Shown: one piece after another, positions 1 through 34,707 of the stretch
How the letters are laid out: each line of letters opens with the position of its first letter
How positions within the stretch are numbered: the first letter of the stretch is position 1
From: an uncultured Clostridia bacterium
GTDB taxonomy: Bacteria; Acidobacteriota; Aminicenantia; UBA2199
Direction: 5' to 3'
NCBI GenBank assembly: GCA_964562095.1
Contig: CAZLSH010000002.1
Coordinates: 9,597 to 73,596 of the forward strand
DNA length: 64,000 nucleotides
Made by a program: the position numbers and the translations under genes
Notes under the pieces: generated by a model
Told to the model about the DNA's origin: nothing
Databases searched by the model: none
The model's input: the letters and a program-made list of their open reading frames with translations, nothing else

Positions 1-347
1 TCCTGCTGTCCACCGGAAGGCTGCTCTACCACTACCACACCGGCAGCATGAGCCGGCGCACCGAGGCGCTGCCGCAGTACGTCCCCGGCCCCTTCATGGA
101 GATGCATGCCGCCGATTTGAAACGCCTGGGCATTGCCAGCGGCGAAAAAGTGAAGGTATCGTCGCGGCGCGGCTCGATCGCTATCGAAGCCCGCGAAAGC
201 TTCCGCGTCGACGAGGGTTCGGTGTTCATCACCTTCCACTTCGCCGAGGCGGCGGCCAACCTGCTGACCAACGACGCCTTCGACCCCATCGCCAAGATCC
301 CCGAGTTCAAGGTGGCCGCCTGCCGGATCGAGGCCATACGGCCGTAA
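1..347 (+). CDS. Molybdopterin oxidoreductase (formate-dehydrogenase/MopB-type), C-terminal molybdopterin-dinucleotide-binding domain; 5-prime partial (the reading frame is open from base 3, upstream of the listed ATG at 48)
   Basis: Frame 3 is open from the window edge (LLSTGRLLYHYHTGSMSRR...). The C-terminal motifs LYHYHTG and FHFAEAAANLLTNDAFDPIAKIPEFK are typical of MopB-superfamily catalytic subunits. Confidence 0.55.
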   Translation, partial: LLSTGRLLYHYHTGSMSRRTEALPQYVPGPFMEMHAADLKRLGIASGEKVKVSSRRGSIAIEARESFRVDEGSVFITFHFAEAAANLLTNDAFDPIAKIPEFKVAACRIEAIRP

Positions 348-1335: not shown

Positions 1336-1456
1336 GTTGGAGAATTAAATTTATTCATACTTGGCATGACTATTATGAAATATGTTTATGCCCGATCCGA
1401 TGGTATATTACTGGGGAAGTGATGTCAAGGGCGTCGTCCCCAACGGAGGAGGCAAC

Positions 1457-3103
1457 ATGGAAAATGCTTGTTTTCAGATCCCGGCGCCGGAGAATGAGCC
1501 CGTGGGTTCCTATGCTTCCGGGTCATGGGAACGGTCGCAACTGGAGATTGAGCTTGAGAGACAATACCGGCAGCGGCTGGAGATCCCCCTGCGCATCGGC
1601 GGCAGGGAAGTGCGCACCGGCTGCATCGGTAAAGCGGTATGTCCGCATGATCATGGCCATGTGCTGGCCGAGTTCCATCAGGCTGGGGAAAAAGAAATCC
1701 ACCTGGCCATTGCCGCCGCTCTGGCTGCCCGGGAAAAGTGGGTCCGGCTGCCATGGTTCGAGCGCGCCGCTGTTTTTATGAAGGCCGCCGAGCTGGTCAC
1801 GGGAAAATACCGCTTCCTCATCAACGCCGCTACCATGCTCAACCAGAGCAAAAATCCGCACGAGGCCGAGATCGATGCCGTCGCCGAGCTGGCCGATTTC
1901 CTGCGCTTCAATGCCTACTTCATGCAGAAGATCTACGCGGAGCAGCCGCAGGTTCATGCGTCCGGCTCGTGGAACCGTTCCCACTACCGGCCGCTGGAGG
2001 GATTCGTTTTTGCGGTTTCCCCGTTCAATTTCACTTCCATCGCCGGCAACCTGGCCGCCGCGCCTGCCCTGATGGGCAATGCGGTGGTCTGGAAGCCGGC
2101 CTCAACGTCCGTGCTCAGCAACCACTACCTGATGGAGATCTACCGTGAGGCCGGGCTGCCCGACGGTGTGATCAATTTCGTTCCCGGACCCGGAGCCGTG
2201 GTCGGCCCGGCCGCCCTCGACCACGACCTATTGGCTGGAGTGCATTACACGGGTTCCACGGAGGTTTTCAGTTCGATGTGGACGACCGTGGGCAGCAAGA
2301 TCAGGAAATACCGCTGCTATCCGCGGCTGGTTGGCGAGACGGGCGGAAAGGATTTTGTCATTGTGCATCCAAGCGCCGACCTGGATGCCGCCGCAATCGC
2401 CCTGGCGCGCGGCGCCTTCGAATATCAAGGGCAGAAGTGCTCGGCCGTTTCCAGGGCTTATATCGCCGAGTCCAGCTGGCCCGGCCTCTGGGGACGGCTG
2501 GCGCCGCTGATCGACGATATCCGCAGACAAATGGGCGATCCCCGCGATTTTTGCTCTTTCAACGCCGTGATCTCCCGGGAGTCGTTCGCTCGCGCCATGG
2601 CGGTTTTCAACCAGGTCCGCCGCGACGACGGGGCGGAGGTGATCGCCGGCGGCAGCGGCGATGACCGGGTCGGCTACTTCATCGAGCCAACCGTGGTCCT
2701 GGCAAAAGATCCACTCCATGCCGCCATGCGCGAGGAATTCTTCTCGCCCATTTTGACGGTCCACGTTTTCCCCGATGCACGCTATGAGGAGATCCTGCGG
2801 ATCTGTGATTCCTCCACTCCCTACGCCCTTACCGGTGCCCTCTTTGCTGGGGACCGCGAAGTAATCGCCAAAACCCTGGATTTGCTGGGCCATGCGGCCG
2901 GGAATTTTTACATCAATGACAAGCCGACCGGAGCGGTGGTCGGCCAGCAGCCTTTCGGCGGCGGCCGCGCCTCCGGGACCAACGATAAGGCGGGCTCCCG
3001 CCTCAACCTGCTGCGCTGGACCAGCCCGCAGACCATCAAGGAGAATTTTTCGCCGCCACGAGAGCTCCGTTACCCCTTCATGAACAAGGAGAACCGCCAA
3101 TGA
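1457..3103 (+). CDS. Aldehyde dehydrogenase, 1-pyrroline-5-carboxylate (L-glutamate gamma-semialdehyde) dehydrogenase-like
   Basis: ALDH-superfamily length and motifs (VSPFNFT, GETGGKDF, EYQGQKCSA), with a RocA/P5CDH-like N-terminus. A strong GGAGGAGG RBS 5 nt upstream of the ATG at 1457 is preferred over the ORF-track start at 1382. Confidence 0.7.
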   Translation: MENACFQIPAPENEPVGSYASGSWERSQLEIELERQYRQRLEIPLRIGGREVRTGCIGKAVCPHDHGHVLAEFHQAGEKEIHLAIAAALAAREKWVRLPWFERAAVFMKAAELVTGKYRFLINAATMLNQSKNPHEAEIDAVAELADFLRFNAYFMQKIYAEQPQVHASGSWNRSHYRPLEGFVFAVSPFNFTSIAGNLAAAPALMGNAVVWKPASTSVLSNHYLMEIYREAGLPDGVINFVPGPGAVVGPAALDHDLLAGVHYTGSTEVFSSMWTTVGSKIRKYRCYPRLVGETGGKDFVIVHPSADLDAAAIALARGAFEYQGQKCSAVSRAYIAESSWPGLWGRLAPLIDDIRRQMGDPRDFCSFNAVISRESFARAMAVFNQVRRDDGAEVIAGGSGDDRVGYFIEPTVVLAKDPLHAAMREEFFSPILTVHVFPDARYEEILRICDSSTPYALTGALFAGDREVIAKTLDLLGHAAGNFYINDKPTGAVVGQQPFGGGRASGTNDKAGSRLNLLRWTSPQTIKENFSPPRELRYPFMNKENRQ

Positions 3104-4671
3104 GACGCGAAATTATTCTGGCGCCGTCGAGCACGGCGGAGGTGAAAGACCGGTTGTTCGTGGAGTTGGGGCTGGCCGCTGAAAATCCAGGCGCCTGCCA
3201 TGGCCCCTGGCTCGGCGCGCAGGGTGCCGCGATCGCCAGCCGTACCCCGATCGACGGCAGCCTGCTGGCCACGGTGCGCGTTGCGGGCGGAGACGATTAC
3301 GAAACCGTCGTGGCCAGCGCAATGGAGGCGTTCCGGTCATGGCGCTGCGTTCCCGCTCCACGGCGCGGCGAGGTGATCCATGCGCTCGGAAATGAGCTTC
3401 GGCATTGCAAGGATTCGTTGGGCACCCTGATTTCCATGGAAATGGGAAAGATCAAGGAAGAAGGGGATGGCGAGGTCCAGGAGATGATCGATATCTGCAA
3501 TTTCGCCGTAGGGCTATCCCGGCAGCTGTATGGCAAATCGATGCATAGCGAGCGGGTCGACAGCCGCATGTACGAACAATGGCAGCCGCTGGGGGTCGTC
3601 GGCCTGATCACGGCATTCAACTTTCCCGCCGCGGTATGGGCGTGGAATTTCGCCATTGCCGCGGTCGCGGGCGATGTGACGATCTGGAAACCCTCGTCGA
3701 AAACGCCTCTGACAGCCATCGCCATCACCCGCATCGTTCAGCGGGTACTGGCGGAAGCGGGATTCGCGGGCGCTGTCGCCTCGCTGCTCATCGGCAGCGG
3801 CGCCGGGATCGGCGAGCGGCTGATCGCCGACCGGAGATTGGCGCTGATCTCCGCCACCGGTTCGACCCGCATGGGGCGGCGCATCGGGCGGGTGGTGGGC
3901 GAGCGGCTGGGACGCACTCTGCTCGAACTGGGAGGGAACAACGCCATGATCGTCAGCGAACATGCCGACCTGCCGCTGGCCCTGCAGGCGACGCTCTTCG
4001 GCGCGATCGGGACGGCGGGCCAGCGCTGCACCTCCACCCGCCGGCTATTCGTGCAGGAGAGCGTCCATGAACGTTTTCTGGGCAGCCTGGTCGAAGCCTA
4101 CCGCCAGGTCCCCATCGGCGACCCCTTGCTGCCGGGAACCCTGATGGGGCCCCTGGTGGACCCGCAGGCGGTTGCCGACATGCAGCGGGCGCTGGCCAGG
4201 CTGGCGGAGGCAGGTGGCCTTATCCTCTGGGGCGGGGAACCTCTCGCCGGTCCGGGATTTCCTGGCGGCGCTTATGTGCGGCCCTGCCTGGCCGTGGCCG
4301 AGAACCGGTGGCCGGTGGTCCAGGAGGAAACTTTCGCCCCGATCCTGTATGTCATGAAGTATCGCACGCTGGACGATGCCATCGCCATGCAGAACGACGT
4401 TCCCCAGGGATTGAGTTCGGCCATTTTTTCGGAGCGGCTGCGCGAAGCGGAGCAATTCCTTTCGCAGCGGGGCAGCGACTGCGGCATTGCCAATATCAAC
4501 ACCGGCACCAGCGGGGCCGAGATCGGCGGGGCTTTCGGCGGCGAGAAAGACACCGGCGGCGGACGCGAATCGGGTTCCGATGCCTGGAAGGCCTACATGC
4601 GGCGGCAGACGGTCAACCTCAACTGGGGATCAACCCTGCCGCTGGCCCAGGGCGTCCGCTTTTCGTTCTGA
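3100..4671 (+). CDS. ALDH7-family aldehyde dehydrogenase (alpha-aminoadipic semialdehyde / piperideine-6-carboxylate dehydrogenase-like)
   Basis: Long colinear similarity to antiquitin-type ALDH7 (GEVQEMIDICNFAVGLSRQLYG, ITAFNFPAAVWAWN, ELGGNNA, GTAGQRCTSTRRLF, ETFAPILYVMKY, GIANINTGTSGAEIGGAFGGEKDTGGGRESGSDAWKAYMRRQT). The start overlaps the upstream stop (ATGA), with an AAGGAG RBS. Confidence 0.85.
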   Translation: MRREIILAPSSTAEVKDRLFVELGLAAENPGACHGPWLGAQGAAIASRTPIDGSLLATVRVAGGDDYETVVASAMEAFRSWRCVPAPRRGEVIHALGNELRHCKDSLGTLISMEMGKIKEEGDGEVQEMIDICNFAVGLSRQLYGKSMHSERVDSRMYEQWQPLGVVGLITAFNFPAAVWAWNFAIAAVAGDVTIWKPSSKTPLTAIAITRIVQRVLAEAGFAGAVASLLIGSGAGIGERLIADRRLALISATGSTRMGRRIGRVVGERLGRTLLELGGNNAMIVSEHADLPLALQATLFGAIGTAGQRCTSTRRLFVQESVHERFLGSLVEAYRQVPIGDPLLPGTLMGPLVDPQAVADMQRALARLAEAGGLILWGGEPLAGPGFPGGAYVRPCLAVAENRWPVVQEETFAPILYVMKYRTLDDAIAMQNDVPQGLSSAIFSERLREAEQFLSQRGSDCGIANINTGTSGAEIGGAFGGEKDTGGGRESGSDAWKAYMRRQTVNLNWGSTLPLAQGVRFSF

Positions 4672-4831: not shown

Positions 4832-6640
4832 ATGAGCGAAGCGATCAAACTGACCGTGGACGGAAAAGAAACGGCCGTCGAGCCCGGAACGACCATTCTG
4901 GAAGCCGCCCGTCAGCTGGGCATCCGCATTCCCAGCTTGTGCTACCACCCCAACCTTTGTCCCACCGCCTCGTGCGGGATCTGCGTAATCGAGATTGCCG
5001 GCATATCCGGGCTGAAACGCTCCTGCTGCACTCCGGCCGAGAACGGCATGAAAGTGACGACCAACTCCAGGACCCTGCGTTCCCTGCGCAAGACACTGGT
5101 CGAACTGATCCTCTCCAACCATGCCAGCGAGTGCCCGACCTGCGTGGCCAATGGCAGATGCGAACTGCAGGATCTGGCCAACGCCATGGGCGTCGATTTC
5201 AACCGCTTCCAGCGCATTGTGGCTGACAAGCCGGTCGACGAGTCCAGCCCAGCGGTGCATCGCGATCCGAAGAAGTGCATCGCCTGCGGCCGCTGCGTCA
5301 CCGTCTGCAACGATATCCAGTCGGTGGCGGCGATCAGCATGGTCAACCGCGGTTTTGACGTCAGTGTCAACACATTTTTCAACGAGGGGCTGGGACGCAG
5401 CGCTTGCGTCAACTGCGGCCAATGCACCGTGTTCTGCCCGACCGGCGCCCTGCGCGAGCGCGGCGAGACCGACGATGTCTGGAACGCCATTCTCGATCCG
5501 GGCAAGATCGTCGTGGTTCAGGAAGCGCCCTCCATCCGCGTCACCCTGGCCGAGGAATTCGGCATGGAGATGGGCACGGTGACCGTGGGCAAGATGTACG
5601 CCGCCCTGAAAAAGATGGGTTTCGATTATGTGTTCGACACCAACTTCACCGCTGATTTAACCATCATGGAGGAGAGCAGCGAACTGATCGGGCGCGTGAA
5701 GAACGGCGGTCTGCTGCCGCTGATCACGTCCTGCTCGCCGGGTTGGATCAAGTTCATGGAGACTTATTTCCCTGACCTGGCCGGCCAGACCTCAACCTGC
5801 AAATCGCCGCAGCAGATGTTCGGGACCCTGGTCAAGACCTATTTTGCCAGGGAAAAAAGCCTCGACCCGGCCAGGATCGTTTCGGTTTCGATCATGCCCT
5901 GCACGGCCAAGAAATTCGAAGCGGACCGTCCGGAAATGTGCGCTTCGGGATACCGGGATGTCGACTACGTATTAACCACCCGCGAATTCGTGCGCATGAT
6001 CAAGGAAGCCAAGATCGATTTCAAGAACCTGCCCGCTGAAAGTCCGGATGAACTGCTGGCCAGCTATACCGGGGCTGCCACGATTTTCGGCGCCACCGGA
6101 GGGGTCATGGAGGCTGCCATCCGCTCGGCCTATTTTCTGCTGGCCGGAAAGAACCTCGCTGATCTGGATGTCAAGGCTGTCCGTGGCCTGGAAGGGATCA
6201 AGGAGGCCACACTGACCATCCCGGCCCAGGGGTTGGGTGACCTGACCGTCAAGGTGGCCGTGGCCCACGGCCTGGGCAATGCCCGGTCCCTGATGGACAA
6301 GGTGCGTGAGCAGATCCGCACTACCGGTAAAAGCGAATATGCCTTCATCGAGATCATGGCCTGCCCCGGCGGCTGCGTCGGTGGCGGCGGCCAGCCATAT
6401 GGCAGCGTCATTGCCGACCGCGCCCGTCGCGGCGAGGGGCTCTACCGCGAGGACAGGGGCATGGCCAAGCGCCAATCCCACGACAACCCCGGCGTCCAGC
6501 TCGTCTACGAGAAATTCCTCGGCCATCCAGGCTCGGAGATGTCCCACAAGTTGCTGCACACACATTATTTCGAGCGCAGCCTGCTCAACGGGGCTTGCGT
6601 CAAGGAAGCGACCCGCAAGCCCGCCGGGCACCACGGTTGA
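4832..6640 (+). CDS. hydA: [FeFe]-hydrogenase catalytic subunit, CpI-type (N-terminal 2Fe-2S, His-ligated 4Fe-4S, two ferredoxin 4Fe-4S clusters, H-cluster domain)
   Basis: H-cluster motifs IMPCTAKKFE (L2) and EIMACPGGCVGGGGQP (L3); L1 reads TSCSPGW rather than canonical TSCCPxW. Accessory clusters: CYHPNLCPTASCGIC, HASECPTCVANGRC, CIACGRCVTVCN, CVNCGQCTVFCP. Followed by hydF-hydG-hydE. Confidence 0.9.
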   Translation: MSEAIKLTVDGKETAVEPGTTILEAARQLGIRIPSLCYHPNLCPTASCGICVIEIAGISGLKRSCCTPAENGMKVTTNSRTLRSLRKTLVELILSNHASECPTCVANGRCELQDLANAMGVDFNRFQRIVADKPVDESSPAVHRDPKKCIACGRCVTVCNDIQSVAAISMVNRGFDVSVNTFFNEGLGRSACVNCGQCTVFCPTGALRERGETDDVWNAILDPGKIVVVQEAPSIRVTLAEEFGMEMGTVTVGKMYAALKKMGFDYVFDTNFTADLTIMEESSELIGRVKNGGLLPLITSCSPGWIKFMETYFPDLAGQTSTCKSPQQMFGTLVKTYFAREKSLDPARIVSVSIMPCTAKKFEADRPEMCASGYRDVDYVLTTREFVRMIKEAKIDFKNLPAESPDELLASYTGAATIFGATGGVMEAAIRSAYFLLAGKNLADLDVKAVRGLEGIKEATLTIPAQGLGDLTVKVAVAHGLGNARSLMDKVREQIRTTGKSEYAFIEIMACPGGCVGGGGQPYGSVIADRARRGEGLYREDRGMAKRQSHDNPGVQLVYEKFLGHPGSEMSHKLLHTHYFERSLLNGACVKEATRKPAGHHG

Positions 6641-6768: not shown

Positions 6769-8016
6769 ATGGCTGAAAAGGCCATGCGCGGCGACCGGCT
6801 GCACATCGCCATCTTCGGCCGGCGCAACGCCGGCAAGTCGTCGCTGATCAACGCTCTGACCGGCCAGCCGGTGGCCATCGTCTCCGACGTGCCCGGGACG
6901 ACCACCGACCCGGTTTTCAAGGCCATCGAGTTCCAGCCCATCGGCCCGGCGGTGCTGATCGACACGGCGGGGATCGACGACCGCGCCGAGGGGCTGGGAG
7001 CGGAGCGGGTCAAGAAGGCGGCCGCCGTCCTGGAAAAGAGCGACCTGGCCCTGCTGGTGGTCGACGCCGCCGCCGATGATTTCGCTCACGAGGACGAGCT
7101 GCTGGAGAAGTTCCGCCGGCGCTCCATCCCGGTCATCGTCGTGGCCAACAAGACCGACCTGGCGCCGGGGCGGGGGAGCGACTGGTTCCGCGACAAGACC
7201 TGCGTGCGCGTCAGCGCCCTGTCCGGAGCCGGCCTGGATGAGCTGCGGCGGCTCATCCTGGAGATCGCCCCCAGCCAATGGGAGCCGCCCTTCCTGCGCG
7301 ACCTGGTCCGCGCCGGGGACGTGGTGGTGCTGGTGGTGCCCATCGACAGCGGCGCCCCCAAGGGGCGGCTGATCATGCCCCAGGTCAAGGCCCTGCGCGA
7401 CGCCCTGGACGGCGGCGCCATGCCGCTGAGCTGCCGCGAGAGCGAGCTGGCCGCGGCCCTCGCCGCCCTGCGCGCCCGCCCGGCGCTGGTGGTGACCGAC
7501 TCGCAGGCTTTCGCGCCGGTCGCCGCCGTCGTCCCCGCCGAGGTTCCGCTGACCTCCTTCTCCATCCTCTCGGCGCGGCAGAAAGGCGACCTGCCCAGCC
7601 TGGTGGAGGGCGTCCTCGCCGTGCCGCGGCTTCGGGCCGGGGACCGGGTGCTGATCGCCGAGTCGTGCTCCCACCACCCGCTGCCGGACGACATCGGCCG
7701 GGTGAAGCTGCCGCGCTGGCTGAACGAGTACGCCGGCGGCGGCCTCAGGATCGAAACCGTCCCCGGCAGCGCCTACCCAGACGACCTGTCGGCCTACCGG
7801 CTGGTGGTGCACTGCGGCGCCTGCACCCTCAACCGCCGCGAGATGCTGCGCCGCCAGGAGCTGCCCGCCCGGGCCGGGGTGGCGATGACCAACTACGGGG
7901 TGTTGATATCGTTCTTGAAGGGCGTCTTCCCGCGGGCGCTGCGGCCCTTCTCCGAGCTGTACGCCCGCTACCAGCATACCGCCTGGCCGCGCGGCCGGGG
8001 GCAAGGAGCGGACTGA
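6769..8016 (+). CDS. hydF: [FeFe]-hydrogenase maturation GTPase HydF
   Basis: N-terminal GTPase P-loop (IAIFGRRNAGKSSLINALTG, DTAG, NKTD) and a C-terminal FeS-scaffold CxH...HCxxC motif (ESCSHH...VVHCGAC). A GGGGGAGGG RBS precedes it. Confidence 0.9.
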   Translation: MAEKAMRGDRLHIAIFGRRNAGKSSLINALTGQPVAIVSDVPGTTTDPVFKAIEFQPIGPAVLIDTAGIDDRAEGLGAERVKKAAAVLEKSDLALLVVDAAADDFAHEDELLEKFRRRSIPVIVVANKTDLAPGRGSDWFRDKTCVRVSALSGAGLDELRRLILEIAPSQWEPPFLRDLVRAGDVVVLVVPIDSGAPKGRLIMPQVKALRDALDGGAMPLSCRESELAAALAALRARPALVVTDSQAFAPVAAVVPAEVPLTSFSILSARQKGDLPSLVEGVLAVPRLRAGDRVLIAESCSHHPLPDDIGRVKLPRWLNEYAGGGLRIETVPGSAYPDDLSAYRLVVHCGACTLNRREMLRRQELPARAGVAMTNYGVLISFLKGVFPRALRPFSELYARYQHTAWPRGRGQGAD

Positions 8017-8017
8017 A

Positions 8018-9400
8018 ATGGATAGCGGATTCATCGACCACGCCAGAATATTCTCCTGCCTGGATAGCGCCCGGCCGCCCGACCGCCGGGAAACAGCCGA
8101 CATCCTGGCCAGGGCGCGGCAGCTCAAGGGGCTCGACTTTGCCGAAGCGGCGCGGCTGCTGCTGCTCGAGGACGAGGAGAGCCTGGCCGAGATCTTCGCC
8201 GCCGCCCTGTTCGCCAAGAGCGAGATCTACGGCAAGCGCCTGGTCCTCTTCGCGCCGCTGTACGTGTCGAACCTGTGCAACAACGAGTGCCTCTACTGCG
8301 CCTTCCGCAAGAGCAACGACCGGATCACGCGCCGCACCCTCCGCCAGGAGGAGATCCGCCGCGAGACCGAGCGGCTGGTCGACCAGGGGCACAAGCGCGT
8401 GCTGCTGGTGTCGGGCGAGGGGCTGGGCGAGGCCGCCCTGGGCTATTCGCTGCAGGCCATCGAGACGATCTACTCGGTCAAGCGCGGCGACGGCGAGATC
8501 CGCCGTGTGAACATCAACGTCGCCGCCCTGCCGGTCGACGCCTACCGCCAGCTGAAGGCGGCCCGCGTCGGCACCTACCAGCTGTTCCAGGAGACCTACC
8601 ATTATGACACCTTTCGCCGCATGCACCCCAGCGGGCCCAAGGCCGACTATCTCTACCACCTGACGGCCATGGACCGCGCCATGCAGGGCGGCATTGACGA
8701 CGTCGGCGTCGGCGTCCTGTTCGGCCTCTACGACTACCGCTTCGAGGTCCTGGCCCTGCTGCAGCACATCCGCCACCTGGAGCAGGCCTTCGGCGTCGGC
8801 TGCCACACCATCTCGCTGCCGCGCATCGAGCCGGCCACCGGCTCCGACCTGTCGCTGCACCCGCCGCACGCCGTGTCCGACGCCGACTTCCGCAAGATCA
8901 TCGCCGTGCTGCGCCTGAGCGTGCCCTACACGGGCATGATCCTCTCCACCCGCGAGAACGCCGCCATGCGCCGCGAGGCCTTCTCGCTGGGCGTCTCGCA
9001 GATCAGCGCCGGCTCGCGCACCAACCCCGGCGGCTACTCCCACGGCGACAGCGGCGAACAGTTCTCCCTGGGCGACCACCGCGACCTGGAGGAGGTCGTC
9101 CGGGACATCGTCGGCCACGGCTACATCCCCTCGTTCTGCACCGGCTGCTACCGCCTGGGCCGCACCGGCGCCGACTTCATGGACCTGGCCAAGCCGGGGC
9201 TGATCAAGCTCTATTGCCTGCCCAACGCCATGACGACGTTCAAGGAGTACCTGGTCCATTACGCGTCCCCGGAGACGCGTGCGTCCGGCGAGGAGCTCAT
9301 CGAGAGCATGATGGCCGACATCCCGGATGCGGAGGTCCGCGGGACGACCCGCAATAACCTGGGGCGGATCGAGGCCGGCGCCAAGGACCTCTACCTGTAG
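8018..9400 (+). CDS. hydG: [FeFe]-hydrogenase maturase HydG (radical-SAM tyrosine lyase)
   Basis: Radical-SAM CNNECLYC motif, ThiH-like length of 460 aa, and a C-terminal CX2CX22C auxiliary-cluster motif (CTGC...22 residues...C). An AAGGAG RBS precedes it. Confidence 0.85.
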   Translation: MDSGFIDHARIFSCLDSARPPDRRETADILARARQLKGLDFAEAARLLLLEDEESLAEIFAAALFAKSEIYGKRLVLFAPLYVSNLCNNECLYCAFRKSNDRITRRTLRQEEIRRETERLVDQGHKRVLLVSGEGLGEAALGYSLQAIETIYSVKRGDGEIRRVNINVAALPVDAYRQLKAARVGTYQLFQETYHYDTFRRMHPSGPKADYLYHLTAMDRAMQGGIDDVGVGVLFGLYDYRFEVLALLQHIRHLEQAFGVGCHTISLPRIEPATGSDLSLHPPHAVSDADFRKIIAVLRLSVPYTGMILSTRENAAMRREAFSLGVSQISAGSRTNPGGYSHGDSGEQFSLGDHRDLEEVVRDIVGHGYIPSFCTGCYRLGRTGADFMDLAKPGLIKLYCLPNAMTTFKEYLVHYASPETRASGEELIESMMADIPDAEVRGTTRNNLGRIEAGAKDLYL

Positions 9401-10453
9401 ATGGACCTCCAGGAGCGCCTGCAGCGGCTGTATCGCGAGCCGAACCGCGGCGACCTGATCCATTTTCTTGCCACTCCCGATATGAACGAGGTCGGGTGTT
9501 TGTACGACTTCGCCGACCGCGTGCGTCGCGAGCATGTCGGCGACGCCGTTCACCTGCGGGCCATCGTCGAGTTCTCCAGCTTTTGCCGCAACGACTGCCT
9601 CTACTGCGGCCTGCGCCGCTCCAACCACGCCCGCCGCCGGCTGCGCATGCCTCTGGATGAGATCGTCGCCCAGTGCCGACGGGCGGAGACGCTCGGCTTT
9701 CGCACGGCAGTACTGCAGTCGGGCGAGGACCCGTTCTACGGCCGCGAGGCGATCGCCGGCCTGGTGCGCCGGGTGAAGGCGGAGACCGGCCTGGCCGTCA
9801 CCCTGGCGGTGGGGGAGAGGAGCGAGGAGGAGTACCGGGCCTTCTTCACGGCCGGAGCCGACCGCTACCTGCTCAAGCACGAGACGTCGGACCGCGAGCT
9901 CTACGAGAGGCTCGACCCGGGTCTGAGCCACGAGCGGCGCATCGGCTGCCTGCGGCTGCTGAAGCGCATCGGCTTCCAGACCGGCAGCGGCATCATGGTC
10001 GGCCTGCCGGGACAGAGCCTGGAAAGCATCGCCGACGATATCCTGCTGTTCCGCGACCTGGACCTCGACATGATCGGCTGCGGCCCGTTCATTCCGCACC
10101 CGGCGACGCCACTGGCAGCGGAGCCGCCGGGAAGCGAGGAACTGACCTACCGCGTGCTCGCCCTGGCGCGACTTGTCACCCGCGACACCCACATCCCGGC
10201 CACCACCGCCCTGGCGGTCACGGCCGGCGACGCCGGGCGCGCCAGCGCCCTGTGCCGCGGCGCCAACGTGGTCATGCCCAACATTACCCCCCAGCCCTGG
10301 CGCGGCGCCTACGAAATCTATCCCAGCAAGGGGCGGACGGAGGTCTTTGACCCGTCCCTGCTGGAGCGGCTGCGGCGGACGCTCTGCGAGCTGGGACGTT
10401 TCATTGCCGAGGACGCCGGCGAACGGGTAGGATTCCCCCATTCGATTTCTTGA
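9401..10453 (+). CDS. hydE: [FeFe]-hydrogenase maturase HydE (radical-SAM, biotin-synthase-like)
   Basis: Radical-SAM CRNDCLYC motif, a 350-aa BioB-like fold, and its start overlaps the hydG stop (TAGATG). Confidence 0.85.
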   Translation: MDLQERLQRLYREPNRGDLIHFLATPDMNEVGCLYDFADRVRREHVGDAVHLRAIVEFSSFCRNDCLYCGLRRSNHARRRLRMPLDEIVAQCRRAETLGFRTAVLQSGEDPFYGREAIAGLVRRVKAETGLAVTLAVGERSEEEYRAFFTAGADRYLLKHETSDRELYERLDPGLSHERRIGCLRLLKRIGFQTGSGIMVGLPGQSLESIADDILLFRDLDLDMIGCGPFIPHPATPLAAEPPGSEELTYRVLALARLVTRDTHIPATTALAVTAGDAGRASALCRGANVVMPNITPQPWRGAYEIYPSKGRTEVFDPSLLERLRRTLCELGRFIAEDAGERVGFPHSIS

Positions 10454-12177: not shown

Positions 12178-12945
12178 TCAGAAAGTCCTGACGCGTCCCA
12201 GCAGACGCAGCAGTCCGTCCAGGATCGTGTAGGGGTGGGGAGGACAGCCGGGGATATAGAGATCGACGGGAAGCATCTCGTCCACGCCGTGGTGGACGTC
12301 CGCGTGCCCGGCGAACATGCCAGCAGAAATGGCGCAAGCCCCGACGGCAATGACGATCTTCGGTGCCGGCGTGGCGTCATAGGTCTTGCGCAGCGCCAGC
12401 TCCATGTTGGCCGTCACCGGCCCGGTCACCAGCAAGCCGTCGGCGTGGCGCGGAGAGGCGACGAACTGAATGCCAAAGCGGGCCAGATCGAACACGATGG
12501 TATTGAGCACATTGATGTCGGCTTCGCAGGCGTTGCAGCCGCCGGCGCTGACCTGGCGCAGGCGCAGTGAGCGGCGGAACAGCCGCAGACGTTTGGGCTC
12601 CAGTGGCCGGGCATGAAGAAAGCAGGCATCTCCGCTGACGGCCAGGCCGCGTCTTTCGTTGGCGGCGAGGATGTATCCGGCGGTGAATGTGATCACCTGA
12701 TCGGGGCAATGGCGCGCGCAAGCGCCGCAAAAGATGCAGCGGCCCATATCGATGACCGCCGTGCCCTGCGCCTTATGGATTGCCTGTACCGGGCAAACCC
12801 GGATGCAGGCGCTGCAGCCGCTGGCGCATTTCCCGGCGGCGATCTTCGGTAAGCCCAGGAAGCGGTCCGGCAGGATAGCTGCCTGCTTCGGGTATTGCAC
12901 CGTGCGTTGACGCTGGGCGATCCTTGTTTTCAGAACATTCGCCAT
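12178..12945 (-). CDS. Fused 2x[4Fe-4S] ferredoxin (NuoI/HycF-like) and NuoB/HycG-like small subunit of an energy-converting hydrogenase-related complex
   Basis: The N-terminus has two Cys clusters (CASGCSACIRVCP, CIFCGACARHCP). The C-terminus has the NuoB/small-subunit cluster ligands GGCNACE, GACA, GCPP. Confidence 0.8.
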   Translation of the reverse strand: MANVLKTRIAQRQRTVQYPKQAAILPDRFLGLPKIAAGKCASGCSACIRVCPVQAIHKAQGTAVIDMGRCIFCGACARHCPDQVITFTAGYILAANERRGLAVSGDACFLHARPLEPKRLRLFRRSLRLRQVSAGGCNACEADINVLNTIVFDLARFGIQFVASPRHADGLLVTGPVTANMELALRKTYDATPAPKIVIAVGACAISAGMFAGHADVHHGVDEMLPVDLYIPGCPPHPYTILDGLLRLLGRVRTF

Positions 12946-12961
12946 GGTGAGCCTGCCTCAT

Positions 12962-14485
12962 TCATAGATCAAATCCACAGTATGACAAGTTGAAGCTCTT
13001 GTTGCAGAGCGGGAAATCGGAGATCGGTTGGCCGCGCATGGCCAGCGCCAGGCCGAACCAGTTGTGGAACGACGGGTCGACGATCTTGTAGCGCTGGAAA
13101 CGGCCGTTCTTGTCGGTGATGGCCACGTGGCAAATTTCTCCCCGCCAGCCTTCGACGAGCGCCACTGTGAGCGCCGAGGCTCTTGCCGGCAGGGGGCCGG
13201 CGGCGATCTCCTTGCCTTTCTGCGCCCTGAACGGCGTGTCCGTTCTGCCCAGATGTTCCAGCAGGAACGCGCAGGATGCCTGGACCTCGCGCCAGCGCAC
13301 ATGCGCTCGGCTGAACACATCGCCTGAATCATGGCTGCAGACCGGAATATGGGCGAAGCGGTAGTACCCATGGGCATGGTCCTGGCGCACGTCTTGAAAG
13401 CAATCGCAGGCGCGCAGCGCCGGGCCGACCAGACCGATGCTCTCCGCCGTTTCCCGCGCCAGCCGGCCTGTGCCCTCGAAACGGGCGAGGATGGAGGCGT
13501 CCTCCCAAAGAAGGCCGGTCGCGCCCAAGAAATCAGAGGTTGAGCCTTGAAGCTTTTTGGACAGCTCCGCTTTTCTTTTCTCATCCAGGGCGAATCCGCA
13601 ACCGCCGGGGACCACCAGGCCGCGGCCGAAGCGGTTGCCGCAGAGCACGGCGGTCATGTTCAGGAAATCACCGCGGATTCTGCCGCAATACGACATGGTG
13701 GGCAGAAAGCCAATGTCCCCGGCCAGCGCGCCCAGATCGCCGACATGGTTGGCGCACCGTTCCAGCTCCAATGCCAATGCCCGCACCATGCCGTCATGGG
13801 CAGAGATCTTGCAGCCGGCCAGTGATTCAACGACCTGGCAATAAGCGCTCATGTGGCCCACCGAGGTGTCGCCGGCGATCACGGCCATCTGAAAGGGCGA
13901 GACGGGGAAGGGCCCGCCACGCAGCGCGTTCTCGATACCGCGGTGCTGGTAGCCCAGTGATATCTCCAGGTGGAGGACCGTCTCCCCGTGGCATTGGAAG
14001 CGGAAGTGCCCCGGCTCGATGATCCCCGCGTGCACGGGGCCGACCGCCACTTCGTGGATCCCTTCGCCACGGACCCGGAAGTAGTCGATCCGGCCGATGG
14101 AGGAAGCCGGCCCTTGCTCCTTTGCCGCCGGCTGGGGAAAACGGACCGCCTTGAGCCAGGGATGGCCCTGGGGCCGCAGCCCGGTCTGCTCGCAGATCTC
14201 CCTTTCGAAGAGATGGACTTGGGGAAAACGGGGGGTCAGGGAGGGGAAATCCTTTTTCCTGGTTATGGTGGAGATGACGGAGAGGGAGCCATTGCGGTCG
14301 TCTGCGGCCACGGCGTACAGTTGGACCTTTTGGGCGTCGAGGCGGTCGCCGAAATAGGCGCAGACCCGGAATCCCCGGTCCAGCAGTACGGCCAGAGACT
14401 CGACGAAGTCGTCCAAGTCAAGGACGGGAACATCGGCCAATGGGATGACCTGGCCGTTGCCTATGCGAGGGATGGCGGCGCTCAT
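12962..14485 (-). CDS. NuoC-NuoD fused large subunit, group 4 hydrogenase / Ehr-like, lacking the NiFe-ligating cysteine motifs
   Basis: Only the 3-prime 1.5 kb of the listed 892-aa ORF looks protein-like; the real start is MSAAIPRIG at 14485. It has the NuoD/HycE signature GPVHAGIIEPGHFRF...HRGIE. Where HycE has RVCGICGFAH this protein reads VIAGDTSVGHMS, and its C-terminus is DFPLCNKSFNLSYCGFDL instead of DPCxxCxxR. It overlaps the next gene by 4 nt. Confidence 0.8.
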   Translation of the reverse strand: MSAAIPRIGNGQVIPLADVPVLDLDDFVESLAVLLDRGFRVCAYFGDRLDAQKVQLYAVAADDRNGSLSVISTITRKKDFPSLTPRFPQVHLFEREICEQTGLRPQGHPWLKAVRFPQPAAKEQGPASSIGRIDYFRVRGEGIHEVAVGPVHAGIIEPGHFRFQCHGETVLHLEISLGYQHRGIENALRGGPFPVSPFQMAVIAGDTSVGHMSAYCQVVESLAGCKISAHDGMVRALALELERCANHVGDLGALAGDIGFLPTMSYCGRIRGDFLNMTAVLCGNRFGRGLVVPGGCGFALDEKRKAELSKKLQGSTSDFLGATGLLWEDASILARFEGTGRLARETAESIGLVGPALRACDCFQDVRQDHAHGYYRFAHIPVCSHDSGDVFSRAHVRWREVQASCAFLLEHLGRTDTPFRAQKGKEIAAGPLPARASALTVALVEGWRGEICHVAITDKNGRFQRYKIVDPSFHNWFGLALAMRGQPISDFPLCNKSFNLSYCGFDL

Positions 14486-15969
14486 CGGCCGATCCCCCTT
14501 TCCACCGCGGCTGCCGCGTCCCGCAAAAAGGCGGAGAAAGGCTCGGGAAGCCATATTCCCAGCAGCAGCAGCGCTGCCGCCAGGCCCAGGACGATCAGGA
14601 TATCGGGCAACCGGGGCTTTGCGGCCGCAGGCAGCGCGCCGCTGCCGCCGCCGAAGGAAACAGCCATGGCGTTTTTCAGGGCGCCGAAAAAAACGGCCAG
14701 GACGCAGAAAAGGAATAGCCCGACGATAAAGTATCGCCCCTGGAAAAAGGCCTGCTTGACGATCAGGAATTCGCTGAGGAAGATCGAGAAGGGCGCCACG
14801 CCGATCAACGCCAGGATGGATAGGAAGAAAGCCCCGCCCCAGAGAGGCACGCGCTCGCCGGCGGCGCTGATCCGCCGCATGTCTCTGGTCCCGTAATGGA
14901 CGCTGATATGGCCGGCGGCAAAGAAGGAGAGGACCTTGGCGAACGAATGGTTGGCGGTGTGCAGCAGGGCCGCGAACGTGCCGATGCCGCCGAGTCCCAG
15001 TCCCACCGCGATGATGCCCATGTGCTCCACGCTGCAGTAGGCCAGGAAGCGCTTGATGTCGCTCTGGATGGGAATGAAGATCGCCGCGAAAAGCAGCGAG
15101 GTGAACCCGAAGATCAGGATGATGGCCTGGGCCTGCCCGTCCCCGCCCATCGCTGCCTTGGCGATCGGCAGGTAGCGCATGATGCAAAAGAGGGCGCAGT
15201 TGAGCATCACCCCGGAAAACGCCGCCGAAACCGGCGTCGGGGCCTGGCTGTGGGCGTCGGGGAGCCAGGTGTGCATGGGCGCCAGCCCGGCCTTGGTCCC
15301 GAAGCCGACCACGATGAAAACGAAGGCGAAGAGCATGAGTTGCGGGTCGATCTGGTCCGCATGCCGCGCCAGCCGGCTGAAAAGGAACTGCGAGCCCGCC
15401 CCGGGCAGGTTCTTGGCCGCGGCGACCGTCAGGATCGTGCCCATGAAGGCGAAGACGATCCCCACCGAGCAAATGAGCAGGTACTTCCACATGGCTTCGA
15501 TGGAAAGGGGGTCGGTTTCGGAAATGATCAGGAACGCCGAGACCAGGGTCGTCGCTTCCAGGGCCACCCACATGACCCCGATGTGGTTGGACATCAGGAC
15601 CAGGAGCAGCATGGCCTGGAACGCCTGCCAGAGCATGCAATAGCGCTTGACGGCGGTGCGGCCCAGGTTGCCGGCCTGGATCCCGTGCTTGAAGTAACCG
15701 CCGGCATAGATGGCGGTGATCAGGAAGACCAGGTCGACGAGAACGATATGGTACAGGGAGAGGGAATCGATGAGCAGGATGCGGCCGTAATGGGAATAGG
15801 CCCCGCCGGCGAAAAAACGCAAGGCCAGCGGCAGCGTCAGGACGGCTGTGGCCAGGGAGGTGACGACCGGGATGCGCAGGGTGCGTCCGGCGTCGGTCAT
15901 GGGCAGGCAGGCCAGGATGCCGCCGCCGAGAACGGCGAAAATGACGGGAATGAAAATCGCCGTCGCCAT
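14482..15969 (-). CDS. NuoM/NuoN/HyfF/MnhD-like proton-translocating antiporter subunit
   Basis: GLAPMHTWLPDAH and AYCSVEHMG motifs in a ~14-TM, 495-aa protein. Confidence 0.8.
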   Translation of the reverse strand: MATAIFIPVIFAVLGGGILACLPMTDAGRTLRIPVVTSLATAVLTLPLALRFFAGGAYSHYGRILLIDSLSLYHIVLVDLVFLITAIYAGGYFKHGIQAGNLGRTAVKRYCMLWQAFQAMLLLVLMSNHIGVMWVALEATTLVSAFLIISETDPLSIEAMWKYLLICSVGIVFAFMGTILTVAAAKNLPGAGSQFLFSRLARHADQIDPQLMLFAFVFIVVGFGTKAGLAPMHTWLPDAHSQAPTPVSAAFSGVMLNCALFCIMRYLPIAKAAMGGDGQAQAIILIFGFTSLLFAAIFIPIQSDIKRFLAYCSVEHMGIIAVGLGLGGIGTFAALLHTANHSFAKVLSFFAAGHISVHYGTRDMRRISAAGERVPLWGGAFFLSILALIGVAPFSIFLSEFLIVKQAFFQGRYFIVGLFLFCVLAVFFGALKNAMAVSFGGGSGALPAAAKPRLPDILIVLGLAAALLLLGIWLPEPFSAFLRDAAAAVERGIGR

Positions 15970-16616
15970 CAGCGCCTCAACTTTTCCAGCGAGCCGCTGC
16001 TGATGGTGTCGTACTCGCTATGGATGTGATGGACGACCATAACCATGATGAACACGCCGACGAGCATGTCCAGCAGAATGCCCATTTCCACGAAAAGGGG
16101 CTGGAAGGCGGCGATGGAGAGGCCCAGGATGAAGCCTGAGTTTTCGAAAACCAGGTAACCGATGATTTGACTGACCACGTTGCGCCGCGCCACGATGAGA
16201 AAAAGTCCGATAAACGCCGTGGCGATGGCGGTGGAGGCGTGAAACGGCGATATCGTGACCGAGTAGAACGGAATTTTTCTGAGCACATAGAAGGCGAAGG
16301 CCGAGGTCAGGATGCCGAAGGTGACCGACAGCGAATAGCCGATGGCGGGGTCGACCTCGCGCACGACGCGCACGTCCCGGATCGCCCGGCGTAGATAGCG
16401 GGGGATCAGAATGCCCTTGATGGCCATGCTTAAGAAGACGAGGAGGAACATGTGGATCCTCTCCGCCGGATTCGGCAGGAGCAGGGGCAGAACGCTTAAA
16501 AGCAGCCCCTGGGCAGCGACGCCGCGGATCATGCCCGAAAGCCGGCTCGTAGCCAGCATATACAGGTTGCAAACGACGATGGCGAGTGAAACCCAGGCCA
16601 GCGGATTGAATCTCAT
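15969..16616 (-). CDS. HyfE-like small membrane subunit (hydrogenase-4 component E family)
   Basis: A 215-aa polytopic membrane protein with a HyfE-like profile, positioned between the NuoH-like and NuoM/N-like genes. Confidence 0.65.
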   Translation of the reverse strand: MRFNPLAWVSLAIVVCNLYMLATSRLSGMIRGVAAQGLLLSVLPLLLPNPAERIHMFLLVFLSMAIKGILIPRYLRRAIRDVRVVREVDPAIGYSLSVTFGILTSAFAFYVLRKIPFYSVTISPFHASTAIATAFIGLFLIVARRNVVSQIIGYLVFENSGFILGLSIAAFQPLFVEMGILLDMLVGVFIMVMVVHHIHSEYDTISSGSLEKLRR

Positions 16617-16623
16617 TTTCCGC

Positions 16624-17541
16624 TTACCATGCGAGTGCCCCGGTCACGCTGATAAAAAAACCCAGCAAGGCGATCACGCCCGCGGCGAATAGAAGTTGCG
16701 GCACCTTGAGCAGCGGCACCCGGGCCATGGACGACTCCACAACGCCCACGATGGCGGCGATCAGGGCGATCAGCGCCACGAGCACGATCGTCTGCAGCAG
16801 TGGCGACGAGCTCGAAACAGGGAGCAAAATCCTCGCCAAAACCAGCGAAAACAACCAGAGCTTGATCGCCGCCGCATATTCCAGCAGCGCCAGCCCCGGG
16901 CCGCTGTTATCCAGGATCATCGCTTCGTGGATCATGGTGAGTTCCAGGTGGGTGTTCGGGTCATCGAATGGGATACGGGCATTCTCGGCCATGAGAACGA
17001 TGAACAGCGGCAGCGCCGAGAGCAGCACGGTGATGGAATCGGCGACCATGGGGGCGGAGAGAGCCGTCATGATGCTGCCGGTGCCATTCGCACGCATGAC
17101 GTTGAGCAGGCAGACGAACAGGACGGGCTCGGCGAGCGCCGAAAAAAAAGCCTCGCGGCTCGCCCCCATGCCGGCGAATGACGAACCGGTGTCGAGGGCG
17201 GACAGGATCAGGAAGAATCTTGCCAGGCCCAGGAGATACAGCAACATGACCACATCGCCGGTGAACAGCGGCTTCGGGCTCAGCATCAGGAAGGGCACAA
17301 AACAGGTTGCGGCGAGGGTAGCGGTGAAGATCACGACCGGGGCCATGCGGAACAGCCACGAGGTCGTCATGCTGGTTACGGTGCCTTTGTGCAGGAGGCG
17401 AAAAAGATCATAGTAGGCTTGGAGGAGCGGTTGCCCTTTGCGCCCGGCGAACATGGCCTTGACGCGGTTGATGATCCCGGCCAGCAGCGGCGAGAAGGCC
17501 AGTGCTGCGGCCGGGGAGATGAGAAAGGCGCTGATGTTCAT
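16624..17541 (-). CDS. NuoH/HycD/HyfC-like membrane subunit
   Basis: The N-terminal motif RVKAMFAGRKGQPLLQ matches the HycD/NuoH family; the protein is 305 aa with 8 TM. Confidence 0.8.
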   Translation of the reverse strand: MNISAFLISPAAALAFSPLLAGIINRVKAMFAGRKGQPLLQAYYDLFRLLHKGTVTSMTTSWLFRMAPVVIFTATLAATCFVPFLMLSPKPLFTGDVVMLLYLLGLARFFLILSALDTGSSFAGMGASREAFFSALAEPVLFVCLLNVMRANGTGSIMTALSAPMVADSITVLLSALPLFIVLMAENARIPFDDPNTHLELTMIHEAMILDNSGPGLALLEYAAAIKLWLFSLVLARILLPVSSSSPLLQTIVLVALIALIAAIVGVVESSMARVPLLKVPQLLFAAGVIALLGFFISVTGALAW

Positions 17542-19523
17542 AGGAAGAACTTCCAGATGATCAGACAGAAAACGGTCAGTGCGATGTAGAACACATATTG
17601 CCCGGTTTTGCCACTCTGGAACCAGCGCAGCAATGAGAACGCCCTGTCCAGGGATCTGACCAGTGGAGAGAACAGCCGGGTCAGGAACCAGTCATCCACG
17701 CCCGCATGAAACGACCAGTTGTCCATGGGGAATAATTCCCTGTCGTTCCGGAGCTGCTCGTGCCCATGCAGGGGAAGCTGGAAATGCTTGATGAGCGGAG
17801 CGGCGAAAGAAGAGGCCGTGTATTGCATGGTCGGGCCGGGTTGGCTGTAGCCGCAATCCCACGTGACGGCGCCCGTCACGGCCCGCCCCCTGCGCTTCAT
17901 GATCGAGCGCCAGGCGTAGAAAAAAACGGCGGCCAATGCCAGCAGGCCCAGGATGATGCTCACGGTCAAAGTCAATGGGAAGAGCGTCCGGGCCGCCGCA
18001 TCGGCAGGGCCGAAAAACATCAGGACCGGTCGAATTAAAACCGGGAGCATGGCCATACTGAATAGGCCTATGAGCAGGCATAGCGCGGCCAGCAAGCCCA
18101 TGGACCAGAGCATGGGAGCCGGAGCTTCTGTTGGCGTGAGCTCTGTTTTCGTGCGTGCTTCACCAAGGAAAACGATACCGAAAACTTTCGTGAAACAGGC
18201 CACGGCCAGACCGCCGATGAGCGCCAGCGAGATGATGACGGCAAGGCTCAGCAGCGCCAGCAGCGGCTGCGGAGCGTGCACGGCGCCGCTGATGCCCGCG
18301 ACGTAGATGAACAACTCGCTGATAAAGCCATTGAAGAACGGCAGGCCGCAGATGGCGATGGCGCCGACAAAGAACAAACTGCCTGTGCGGGGCATTTTTT
18401 TCAACAGGCCGCCCAGGCGATCGATCTCGCCGCTCCCCGTTTGCCGGATCACCGCCCCGGCCCCAAGGAACAGCAGTCCCTTGAATAGGGCATGATTTAC
18501 GACATGCAGCAGCCCGCCTGCGAAACCGAAAAGCGCGATGGTGCTGGAGCCGAAGGCCACCCCGGTCATGCCGATGCCGATGCCCAGGAGAATGATGCCG
18601 ATATTTTCAACGCTGTGATAGGCAAGCAATCTCTTGATATCATGCTGCCCGAGGGCGAAGAGCACTCCCAGTATGCCGGATATCGCTCCCAGGGCAATCA
18701 GGAGCATGCCCCACCAGGAGTGAAATGGCGCAATGAACGTCAACAACCGCATCAGCCCATATATGCCCATCTTGATCATGATCCCGGACATGAGCGCCGA
18801 TACATGGCTCGGGGCGGCCGGGTGCGCGAGGGGAAGCCAGACATGAAAGGGAATGAACCCCGCTTTCAAGCCGAATGCGATCAGGGCGAGGATGAATACG
18901 GCATCGGCCCTGGCGGCCGAGAAATGAATGCCGGTCCAGGCGTGAAAATCGAACGAGCCGGCTGACGCGGAAAGCTGGAGAAAAAGGACCAGCAGAAATG
19001 CCGTGCCTACGTGCGCCGTGACGAAATAGGTCCATCCGGCCCGGATCGCATCGGGGTTCTTTTTGTCGTTGATGACCAGGAAAAACGATGAGAGCGACAT
19101 GATCTCCCAGGCCAGGATGAACAGGACAGCGTTCCTGGCCAGGAGCACCATGACCATCCCGGAAACCAGCAAGCTGAAATAGAACCAATGGGAGCGTCCG
19201 GCGGGATGACTCCCGAAGTAACGCGTCCCGTAAAGTGAACTGGCTGCCGCCAGGATCAGCAGCGGGATCATGAATATGGCGCTCAAGGGGTCGATGCCCG
19301 CCCGCAGGCTGGCGAAGGGCAGTTGCCAGTTCAGCCAGCTGGAAATGATATTCGCGTCAATGCGGCGGAAAATCCAGAAAAGATATGCCAGGGTGATGAG
19401 GCTGCCGGCGGAAACAATGATGGCGGTCAGGTCCTTTAGCCGGGAGCCATGCTTGAACGGGTACAGGCTGAATACGCCAGCTGCACTGACAACGAAGACA
19501 TAAAAAATCAAGGGGTTCAGCAT
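17538..19523 (-). CDS. NuoL/HyfB/HycC/MnhA-like antiporter subunit
   Basis: LAWEIMSLSS, FHVWLPLAHPAAPSHVSALMSG and LAYHSVENIG motifs; 661 aa. Confidence 0.85.
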   Translation of the reverse strand: MLNPLIFYVFVVSAAGVFSLYPFKHGSRLKDLTAIIVSAGSLITLAYLFWIFRRIDANIISSWLNWQLPFASLRAGIDPLSAIFMIPLLILAAASSLYGTRYFGSHPAGRSHWFYFSLLVSGMVMVLLARNAVLFILAWEIMSLSSFFLVINDKKNPDAIRAGWTYFVTAHVGTAFLLVLFLQLSASAGSFDFHAWTGIHFSAARADAVFILALIAFGLKAGFIPFHVWLPLAHPAAPSHVSALMSGIMIKMGIYGLMRLLTFIAPFHSWWGMLLIALGAISGILGVLFALGQHDIKRLLAYHSVENIGIILLGIGIGMTGVAFGSSTIALFGFAGGLLHVVNHALFKGLLFLGAGAVIRQTGSGEIDRLGGLLKKMPRTGSLFFVGAIAICGLPFFNGFISELFIYVAGISGAVHAPQPLLALLSLAVIISLALIGGLAVACFTKVFGIVFLGEARTKTELTPTEAPAPMLWSMGLLAALCLLIGLFSMAMLPVLIRPVLMFFGPADAAARTLFPLTLTVSIILGLLALAAVFFYAWRSIMKRRGRAVTGAVTWDCGYSQPGPTMQYTASSFAAPLIKHFQLPLHGHEQLRNDRELFPMDNWSFHAGVDDWFLTRLFSPLVRSLDRAFSLLRWFQSGKTGQYVFYIALTVFCLIIWKFFL

Positions 19524-21888: not shown

Positions 21889-21911
21889 GATGCCTTCTCC
21901 TTCATGGTATT

Positions 21912-30147: not shown

Positions 30148-30296
30148 GGCGTTTCCGGCAATCCGGGGGACATCGAGGAGGAGATCGCCTGTCCGCCGGG
30201 GCTGAAGACAATAAGACGTTTCCTCTAGGGGAATGGTTTCCATTCCGCCTCCGAAAAACAACTTTTAATGAAAACATTATAGGATCATTAATAATT

Positions 30297-33134: not shown

Positions 33135-33306
33135 GTCGCCCTCCAACGATGCAGACGACGAATATAGGGAATCGGCAGGTGGTGCCTTTCCGGTGCGGGG
33201 AAGACAATTATTAGACGCGGGAAAGTGGAGAAATGTTTCATGTTTCGGAGTTTCTTACCCATATTGGCGTCATGTTTTCGGAATGATACTCCGGCAGATG
33301 AAAATA

Positions 33307-34707
<1,401 letters not shown>

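Follow-up and report, generated by a model that had tools for sequence, protein, structure and literature searches.

CpI of Clostridium pasteurianum (PDB 4XDC, 3C8Y), the prototypical group A [FeFe] hydrogenase of M3 architecture, is monomeric and ferredoxin-dependent, and its L1 motif reads TSCCPGW with Cys300 acting as a ligand of the [4Fe-4S] cubane of the H-cluster. In HydA1 of Acetobacterium woodii, the catalytic subunit of a HydABC(D) complex (PDB 7Q4V, 7Q4W, 8A5E), this cysteine ligand is replaced by Ser301, an assignment resting on a cryo-EM model at about 3.5 Å, with the hydrogenase being highly active and showing normal FTIR signatures (Katsyv et al., 2023; PMC10021017). Of the hydrogenase sequences analysed in an earlier study, approximately 20% had serine at the cubane-ligand position (Kertess et al., 2017; PMC5855289), a frequency for which the relevant passage of that paper cites Winkler, Esselborn and Happe (2013), and the motif TSCSPGW has been recorded in Melainabacteria hydrogenases (Di Rienzi et al., 2013; PMC3787301). 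The Cys-to-Ser variant at the H-cluster cubane ligand is as such common, conserved and already known, and the novelty implied for it in the first-pass annotation of the DNA described here falls away, the variant being documented.

The same substitution has been engineered at the same ligand position in Chlamydomonas reinhardtii HydA1, where the C115S protein bound little [4Fe-4S] and had an activity below 1 (Kertess et al., 2017; PMC5855289). The natural serine proteins are conserved and the one tested, that of A. woodii, is active, whereas the engineered protein fails, indicating that tolerance of serine is context-dependent. This puzzle concerns the family as a whole and has been raised in earlier publications, the present locus adding no new handle on it.

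The flavoprotein subunit HydB provides a second point of comparison. A. woodii HydB is electron-bifurcating, carrying PGAFMDR, PPFP, GGPSG and a C-terminal extension. The three motifs together with extra Fe-S domains serve as criteria to distinguish bifurcating HydB from that of the non-bifurcating NADH-dependent enzymes (Losey et al., 2020; PMC7311640), with which the NCBIfam model NF040763 ('NADH-dependent [FeFe] hydrogenase, group A6') is associated.

The hydA gene and its H-cluster motifs

Within the window, the whole 64-kb stretch of DNA that was analysed, hydA occupies positions 4832-6640 on the plus strand and encodes a 602-aa protein matched in Pfam, NCBIfam and the PDB as the catalytic subunit of an M3-type group A [FeFe] hydrogenase, the name hydrogenase having already been given correctly by annotation pipelines. 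HydA is very probably an intact and functional catalytic subunit of a multimeric NADH-linked group A [FeFe] hydrogenase, with the widespread natural Cys-to-Ser variant at its first cubane ligand. Starting from the N-terminus, the Pfam matches comprise a 2Fe-2S domain (PF13510) followed by a His-ligated 4Fe-4S domain (PF10588), a middle part of ferredoxin-like 2x[4Fe-4S] type (PF22117 and Fer4 families), the H-domain (PF02906) and a small-subunit-like domain at the C-terminus (PF02256). The H-domain match covers the full profile with E = 2e-95, such that it is no chance resemblance, and judged from these domains HydA has the M3 layout known from CpI-like enzymes of group A. HydA scored 511 bits against the group A model TIGR02512 (cutoff 406) and 819.9 bits against NF040763 (cutoff 765). 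The group B model TIGR04105 gave 166 bits, far below its cutoff of 450, and the TSCCCP-type L1 of group B with its extra cysteine was not found in HydA.

The L1 motif (5726-5746, plus strand) reads TSCSPGW in the frame of the hydA open reading frame (T299 S300 C301 S302 P303 G304 W305; codons ACG TCC TGC TCG CCG GGT TGG), departing from the canonical TSCCPxW with both cysteines. In the HMMER alignment of HydA with CpI (E = 1e-134), which is gap-free across HydA residues 211-414, Cys301 aligns with CpI C299, the proton relay, and Ser302 with CpI C300, the cubane ligand. The first-pass annotation had reported a serine in place of C300 together with a retained proton-relay cysteine and canonical L2 and L3 motifs, all of which is borne out. 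It was also right that the codons are TGC TCG but placed them at 5733-5738, one base too high, with the correct positions being 5732-5737 (Cys301, TGC, 5732-5734; Ser302, TCG, 5735-5737). The check that it named, a shift of register restoring both ligands, is answered by the absence of gaps in the CpI alignment, so that there is no register shift at L1.

The remaining H-cluster motifs lie on the plus strand at 5894-5920 for L2 (MPCTAKKFE, canonical MPCxxKxxE), containing the cubane ligand Cys357 and Lys360, and at 6350-6397 for L3 (EIMACPGGCVGGGGQP, canonical ExMxCxxGCxxG), containing Cys511 and Cys515 (cubane ligand and bridging cysteine). The proton-transfer residues E281, E284, R288 and S321 (5672-5794, plus strand) align with CpI E279, E282, R286 and S319, and the whole proton pathway (C301, E281, S321, E284 and R288) is present in HydA at CpI-aligned positions. 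HydA thus shares its domain layout, L2, L3 and proton pathway with CpI but differs from it in L1, TSCSPGW standing against TSCCPGW.

The best match among solved structures was A. woodii HydA1 (7q4v_A; E = 4.4e-185, residues 5-582 against 4-579), a full-length match of the same M3 architecture with an identical L1 segment, ITSCSPGWIKF, and with L2 and L3 identical or near-identical. The offset in the alignment block is one, by which Ser302 of HydA aligns with Ser301 of A. woodii. The second match was HydA1 of Thermoanaerobacter kivui (8a6t_A), which has cysteine at this position (Cys299) in an L1 reading FTSCCPSW. The finding of the same TSCSPGW in the active A. woodii enzyme, where the serine is the reported cubane ligand and the FTIR bands are normal, lends support to the earlier suggestion that serine ligation is tolerated here.

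Conservation and accommodation of the serine

Among the 120 best homologues in a collection of 5.8 billion proteins (62-100% identity), 118 carry TSCSP and two, P0025 and P0114, carry TSCCP, with the source names covering Aminicenantes, Spirochaetes, Hydrothermae/WOR-3, Cloacimonetes and Mcinerneyibacteriota. The serine codon differs between relatives, being TCG in L004 and L005, TCA in L006 and L007 and TCT in L008, and the constancy of the amino acid across these lineages while its codon changes argues for purifying selection on serine.

Formally, TCG is converted to TGC by swapping two adjacent bases, and the first-pass annotation had raised the possibility of a 2-nt inversion in sequencing or assembly, the true codons being TGC TGC. 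The likelihood of this is negligible, given serine in 118 of the 120 homologues and the occurrence elsewhere of TCA and TCT codons, which lie out of reach of a GC/CG inversion. In keeping with this, the ENA and Logan assemblies of run ERR1193289 contain the same hydA with 0 mismatches over 1809 nt and TGC TCG at the site, while the Logan assembly of a different and independent run, SRR27370448, has 1 mismatch in 1809 bases with TGC TCG kept. The protein itself was recovered exactly from contigs of both runs. On the evidence of these assemblies and homologues the serine variant is real, conserved and natural rather than an artefact.

Among the 150 nearest cluster representatives at 50% identity, a sample biased towards relatives of HydA, 129 L1-like matches were found, 25 of them with Cys-Ser-Pro (23 TSCSP and 2 SSCSP) and 100 with Cys-Cys-Pro. 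The share of Cys-Ser-Pro agrees with the figure of about 20% from earlier work (Kertess et al., 2017; PMC5855289). With the serine form this widespread, and active in A. woodii, the strict L1 motif is a simplification and not a criterion of membership. The pattern TSCCPxW is too strict and TSC[CS]PxW is better, since screens demanding both cysteines would wrongly flag around one fifth of group A hydrogenases as defective. The serine motif is ordinary in a large hydrogenase clade that spans several phyla. The top match in the representative library, P0121, which comes from outside the window, is a protein of 4122 aa with seven separate hydrogenase-matching stretches, perhaps a fusion of several copies or else a gene model that is mis-assembled or eukaryotic.

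Judged by its homologue A. woodii HydA1, HydA most likely binds one cubane iron through Ser302 (Fe-O(Ser) ligation) where the canonical enzyme uses a cysteine thiolate; Cys357, Cys511 and Cys515 would provide the other three cubane ligands, and Cys301 would still deliver the final proton to the azadithiolate bridge. The present analysis establishes the motif, how far it is conserved and to which position it aligns, along with gene context and HydB signatures, while the position of the A. woodii serine and the spectroscopy come from the literature, and it is from both that we infer Fe-O(Ser) ligation, activity and choice of partner in this organism.

How the serine is accommodated was addressed with an alignment of 123 H-domains, 34 of the Ser type and 89 of the Cys type. 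The only conserved cysteine columns in the Ser group are 301, 357, 511 and 515, with no replacement cysteine among them. A shift of ligand, in which Cys301 would move onto the cubane instead of residue 302 and leave the enzyme without its proton-relay cysteine, is very unlikely. Ser301 was itself assigned as the ligand-replacing residue in the A. woodii structure (PMC10021017), that enzyme shows canonical FTIR states and activity, both of which need the relay, and Cys301 is invariant in the Ser and Cys groups alike (123 of 123 H-domains), as expected for a residue with a separate role. Cys323, aligned with A321 of CpI, was a candidate for a compensating cysteine, being present in HydA and A. 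woodii but lacking in CpI and T. kivui. It was rejected because about 39 of the 118 TSCSP homologues read STAKSP there, both TSCCP revertants keep the cysteine, and across the 123 H-domains the column is cysteine in 79% of the Ser type against 57% of the Cys type.

A mutual-information scan of the same 123 H-domains found no column covarying strongly with residue 302, the best reaching 0.38 bits against 0.85 bits for the column itself, a value consistent with phylogenetic signal only. As such no single covarying position that would account for serine tolerance was found in these domains. A neighbour-joining tree with Fitch parsimony, which carries no support values and is indicative only, gave about 15 Cys/Ser changes with the serine sequences forming no clean single clade, including two Ser-to-Cys reversions inside the clade of HydA.

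It is conceivable, though we regard it as rather unlikely, that cysteine or serine at the first cubane ligand forms a recurrent evolutionary switch, tuning the cubane potential or catalytic bias in NAD(H)-linked multimeric hydrogenases. Were this so, the natural serine enzymes would carry a distributed second-sphere compensation, which would explain the failure of the engineered Cys-to-Ser exchange in Chlamydomonas HydA1. A natural test set for such tuning would be the clade of HydA, where Cys and Ser members share an operon context and can be paired (P0114 against P0099).

Maturation genes and the probable catalytic role of HydA

Three maturation genes follow directly 3′ of hydA on the plus strand, all scoring above equivalog cutoffs. 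These are hydF, encoding the H-cluster maturation GTPase (6769-8016; TIGR03918, 509.9 bits, cutoff 325; PF18133 and PF18128), and the genes for two radical SAM maturases, hydG (8018-9400; TIGR03955, 537.6 bits, cutoff 312) and hydE (9401-10453; TIGR03956, 322.9 bits, cutoff 254.6). Their products would build the [2Fe] subcluster, and the gene context points to a working catalytic enzyme, with the adjacency of hydFGE being circumstantial for H-cluster assembly and H2 turnover.

The first-pass annotation had also considered a sensory or non-standard H-cluster variant. HydA would on that account be a non-catalytic protein similar to group C (HydS), its altered L1 reflecting a regulatory role. Altered L1 motifs are typical of non-prototypical hydrogenase groups, and group C-like PF02906 genes occur near some homologues, beside HATPase and PHP genes (L008 and L011). 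A sensory role for HydA is nonetheless extremely improbable. The group C test looks for an additional sensory or signalling domain and for loss of the proton-relay cysteine, and in HydA the Pfam domains are those of an M3 hydrogenase only, with Cys301 and the rest of the proton pathway kept. The scores lie above the cutoffs of both group A models and far below that of the group B model, the maturation genes adjoin, and HydA is 62-74% identical to proteins encoded within hydC-hydB-hydA operons, while A. woodii HydA1, the nearest relative of solved structure to share its motif, is highly active.

The group C-like genes belong to a second gene set found beside the hydCBA genes of relatives (L006, 2125-5920; L008, 223-5949; L011, 10056-13818), which comprises PHP-domain, HATPase_c and DRTGG proteins and a longer NuoF of bifurcating type. 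In L008 and L011 it includes a 435-443-aa protein with an [FeFe] hydrogenase H-domain, Fer4 and FeS domains, such that the set looks like a regulatory module of a group C sensory hydrogenase. No such gene set was found in the window.

The probable flavoprotein partner and neighbouring genes

A tblastn search found no hydB or hydC (nuoF or nuoE homologues) in the 64-kb window. The window opens on the 3′ end of fdhA (3-344, plus strand), the last 114 codons of the gene, which were 100% identical by tblastn to FdhA residues 794-907 of the longer contig L001, and this is followed on the minus strand by a divergent gene for a LysR-type regulator (439-1335; Pfam HTH_1 and LysR_substrate) between the fdhA operon and hydA. 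Upstream of the window, L001 carries in order genes for a 1024-aa NuoE/NuoF/GltD-like fusion, a 155-aa NuoE-like protein and a 531-aa NuoF-like protein, then the 907-aa fdhA and the divergent lysR. Between the hydC-hydB pair and hydA thus stand fdhA, lysR and the genes for two aldehyde dehydrogenases. In L001 (1-5516) it is not hydA that comes after the hydC-like and hydB-like genes but the gene for the molybdopterin formate dehydrogenase subunit of 907 aa.

The stretch from lysR to hydA contains both aldehyde dehydrogenase genes (1382-4671, plus strand), which match TIGR01236 (L-glutamate gamma-semialdehyde dehydrogenase) and NF050084 (L-piperidine-6-carboxylate dehydrogenase). In an 84%-identical Aminicenantes relative (L004 and L005) the gene order is the same, the position of lysR being kept (synteny of L001, L004 and L005), but both aldehyde dehydrogenase genes are missing and a formate/nitrite transporter gene follows hydE. 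As they are absent at this place in so close a relative, the aldehyde dehydrogenases look like a lineage-specific insertion.

The order hydC-hydB-hydA was found in five of five relatives from other lineages, including the Cys-type P0114, with genes for a 151-153-aa NuoE-like and a 519-537-aa NuoF-like protein directly before hydA. The NuoF-like protein upstream of the window shares 66% and 72% identity with HydB proteins of these relatives, alongside 68% and 74% for the corresponding HydA proteins, and it is therefore taken as the orthologous HydB. Since hydA does not adjoin hydB and hydC here, in contrast to the A. woodii comparison system, it is from these comparisons that we infer HydB and HydC as its partners.

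Compared with the bifurcating chains 7t2r_B and 7q4v_B, the upstream HydB has PGTFKDR rather than PGAFMDR, PPYP rather than PPFP and GGAAG rather than GGPSG. It ends at residue 531 where the bifurcating chains run on to 597-599, being about 70 residues longer, and it lacks four cysteines that both chains have in their N-terminal part. The features of electron-bifurcating HydABC of the A. woodii, T. maritima and T. kivui type were thus not found in this HydB, which follows the non-bifurcating pattern and shows all the HydB sequence signatures of the non-bifurcating enzymes (Losey et al., 2020; PMC7311640). The gene order differs from that in S. wolfei and S. aciditrophicus of the same study, being hydC-hydB-fdhA / lysR / hydA-hydFGE. 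These signatures imply a coupling of H2 to NAD(H) that would not involve ferredoxin, and the enzyme is most likely an NADH-linked, ferredoxin-independent hydrogenase of HydABC type. Electrons would most likely pass through the F-domain clusters of HydA to the HydB/HydC (NuoF/NuoE-like) flavoprotein module, whose genes form an operon with that for a formate dehydrogenase subunit immediately upstream of the window and which may be shared with a formate dehydrogenase. In the WOR-3/Hydrothermia relative L006, fdhA and a formate transporter gene stand at the end of the hydCBA-maturase operon, and the recurring association with FdhA suggests a shared NAD(H)-linked formate/H2 module.

A few kilobases from hydA, a cluster on the minus strand (12178-19523) resembles a membrane-bound group 4 [NiFe] hydrogenase or a complex-I-like module. 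The small subunit is NuoB-like and carries a fused 4Fe-4S dicluster domain (12178-12945), and the large-subunit-like protein (about 12962-14500) is a 30-kDa/49-kDa fusion. The cluster further encodes a NuoH-like subunit (16624-17541) and, at 14482-15969 and 17538-19523, antiporter subunits of Mrp/NuoL type, and from the likeness of these subunits the cluster may be a second, energy-converting hydrogenase of the genome. Further along, the minus-strand region 20635-26989 comprises two GAPDH-like genes, of which one is unusually long (502 aa), on either side of a gene for a protein of 1357 aa, where ATP-binding domains of pyruvate phosphate dikinase type and PEP-utilising mobile domains are confined to the C-terminal third. 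An enolase gene is nearby at 33316-34707. Two tandem paralogous large regulators, also on the minus strand (27385-30261 and 30420-33146), combine two-component-regulator beta-propeller repeats (Reg_prop) and a Y_Y_Y domain with a LuxR/GerE helix-turn-helix.
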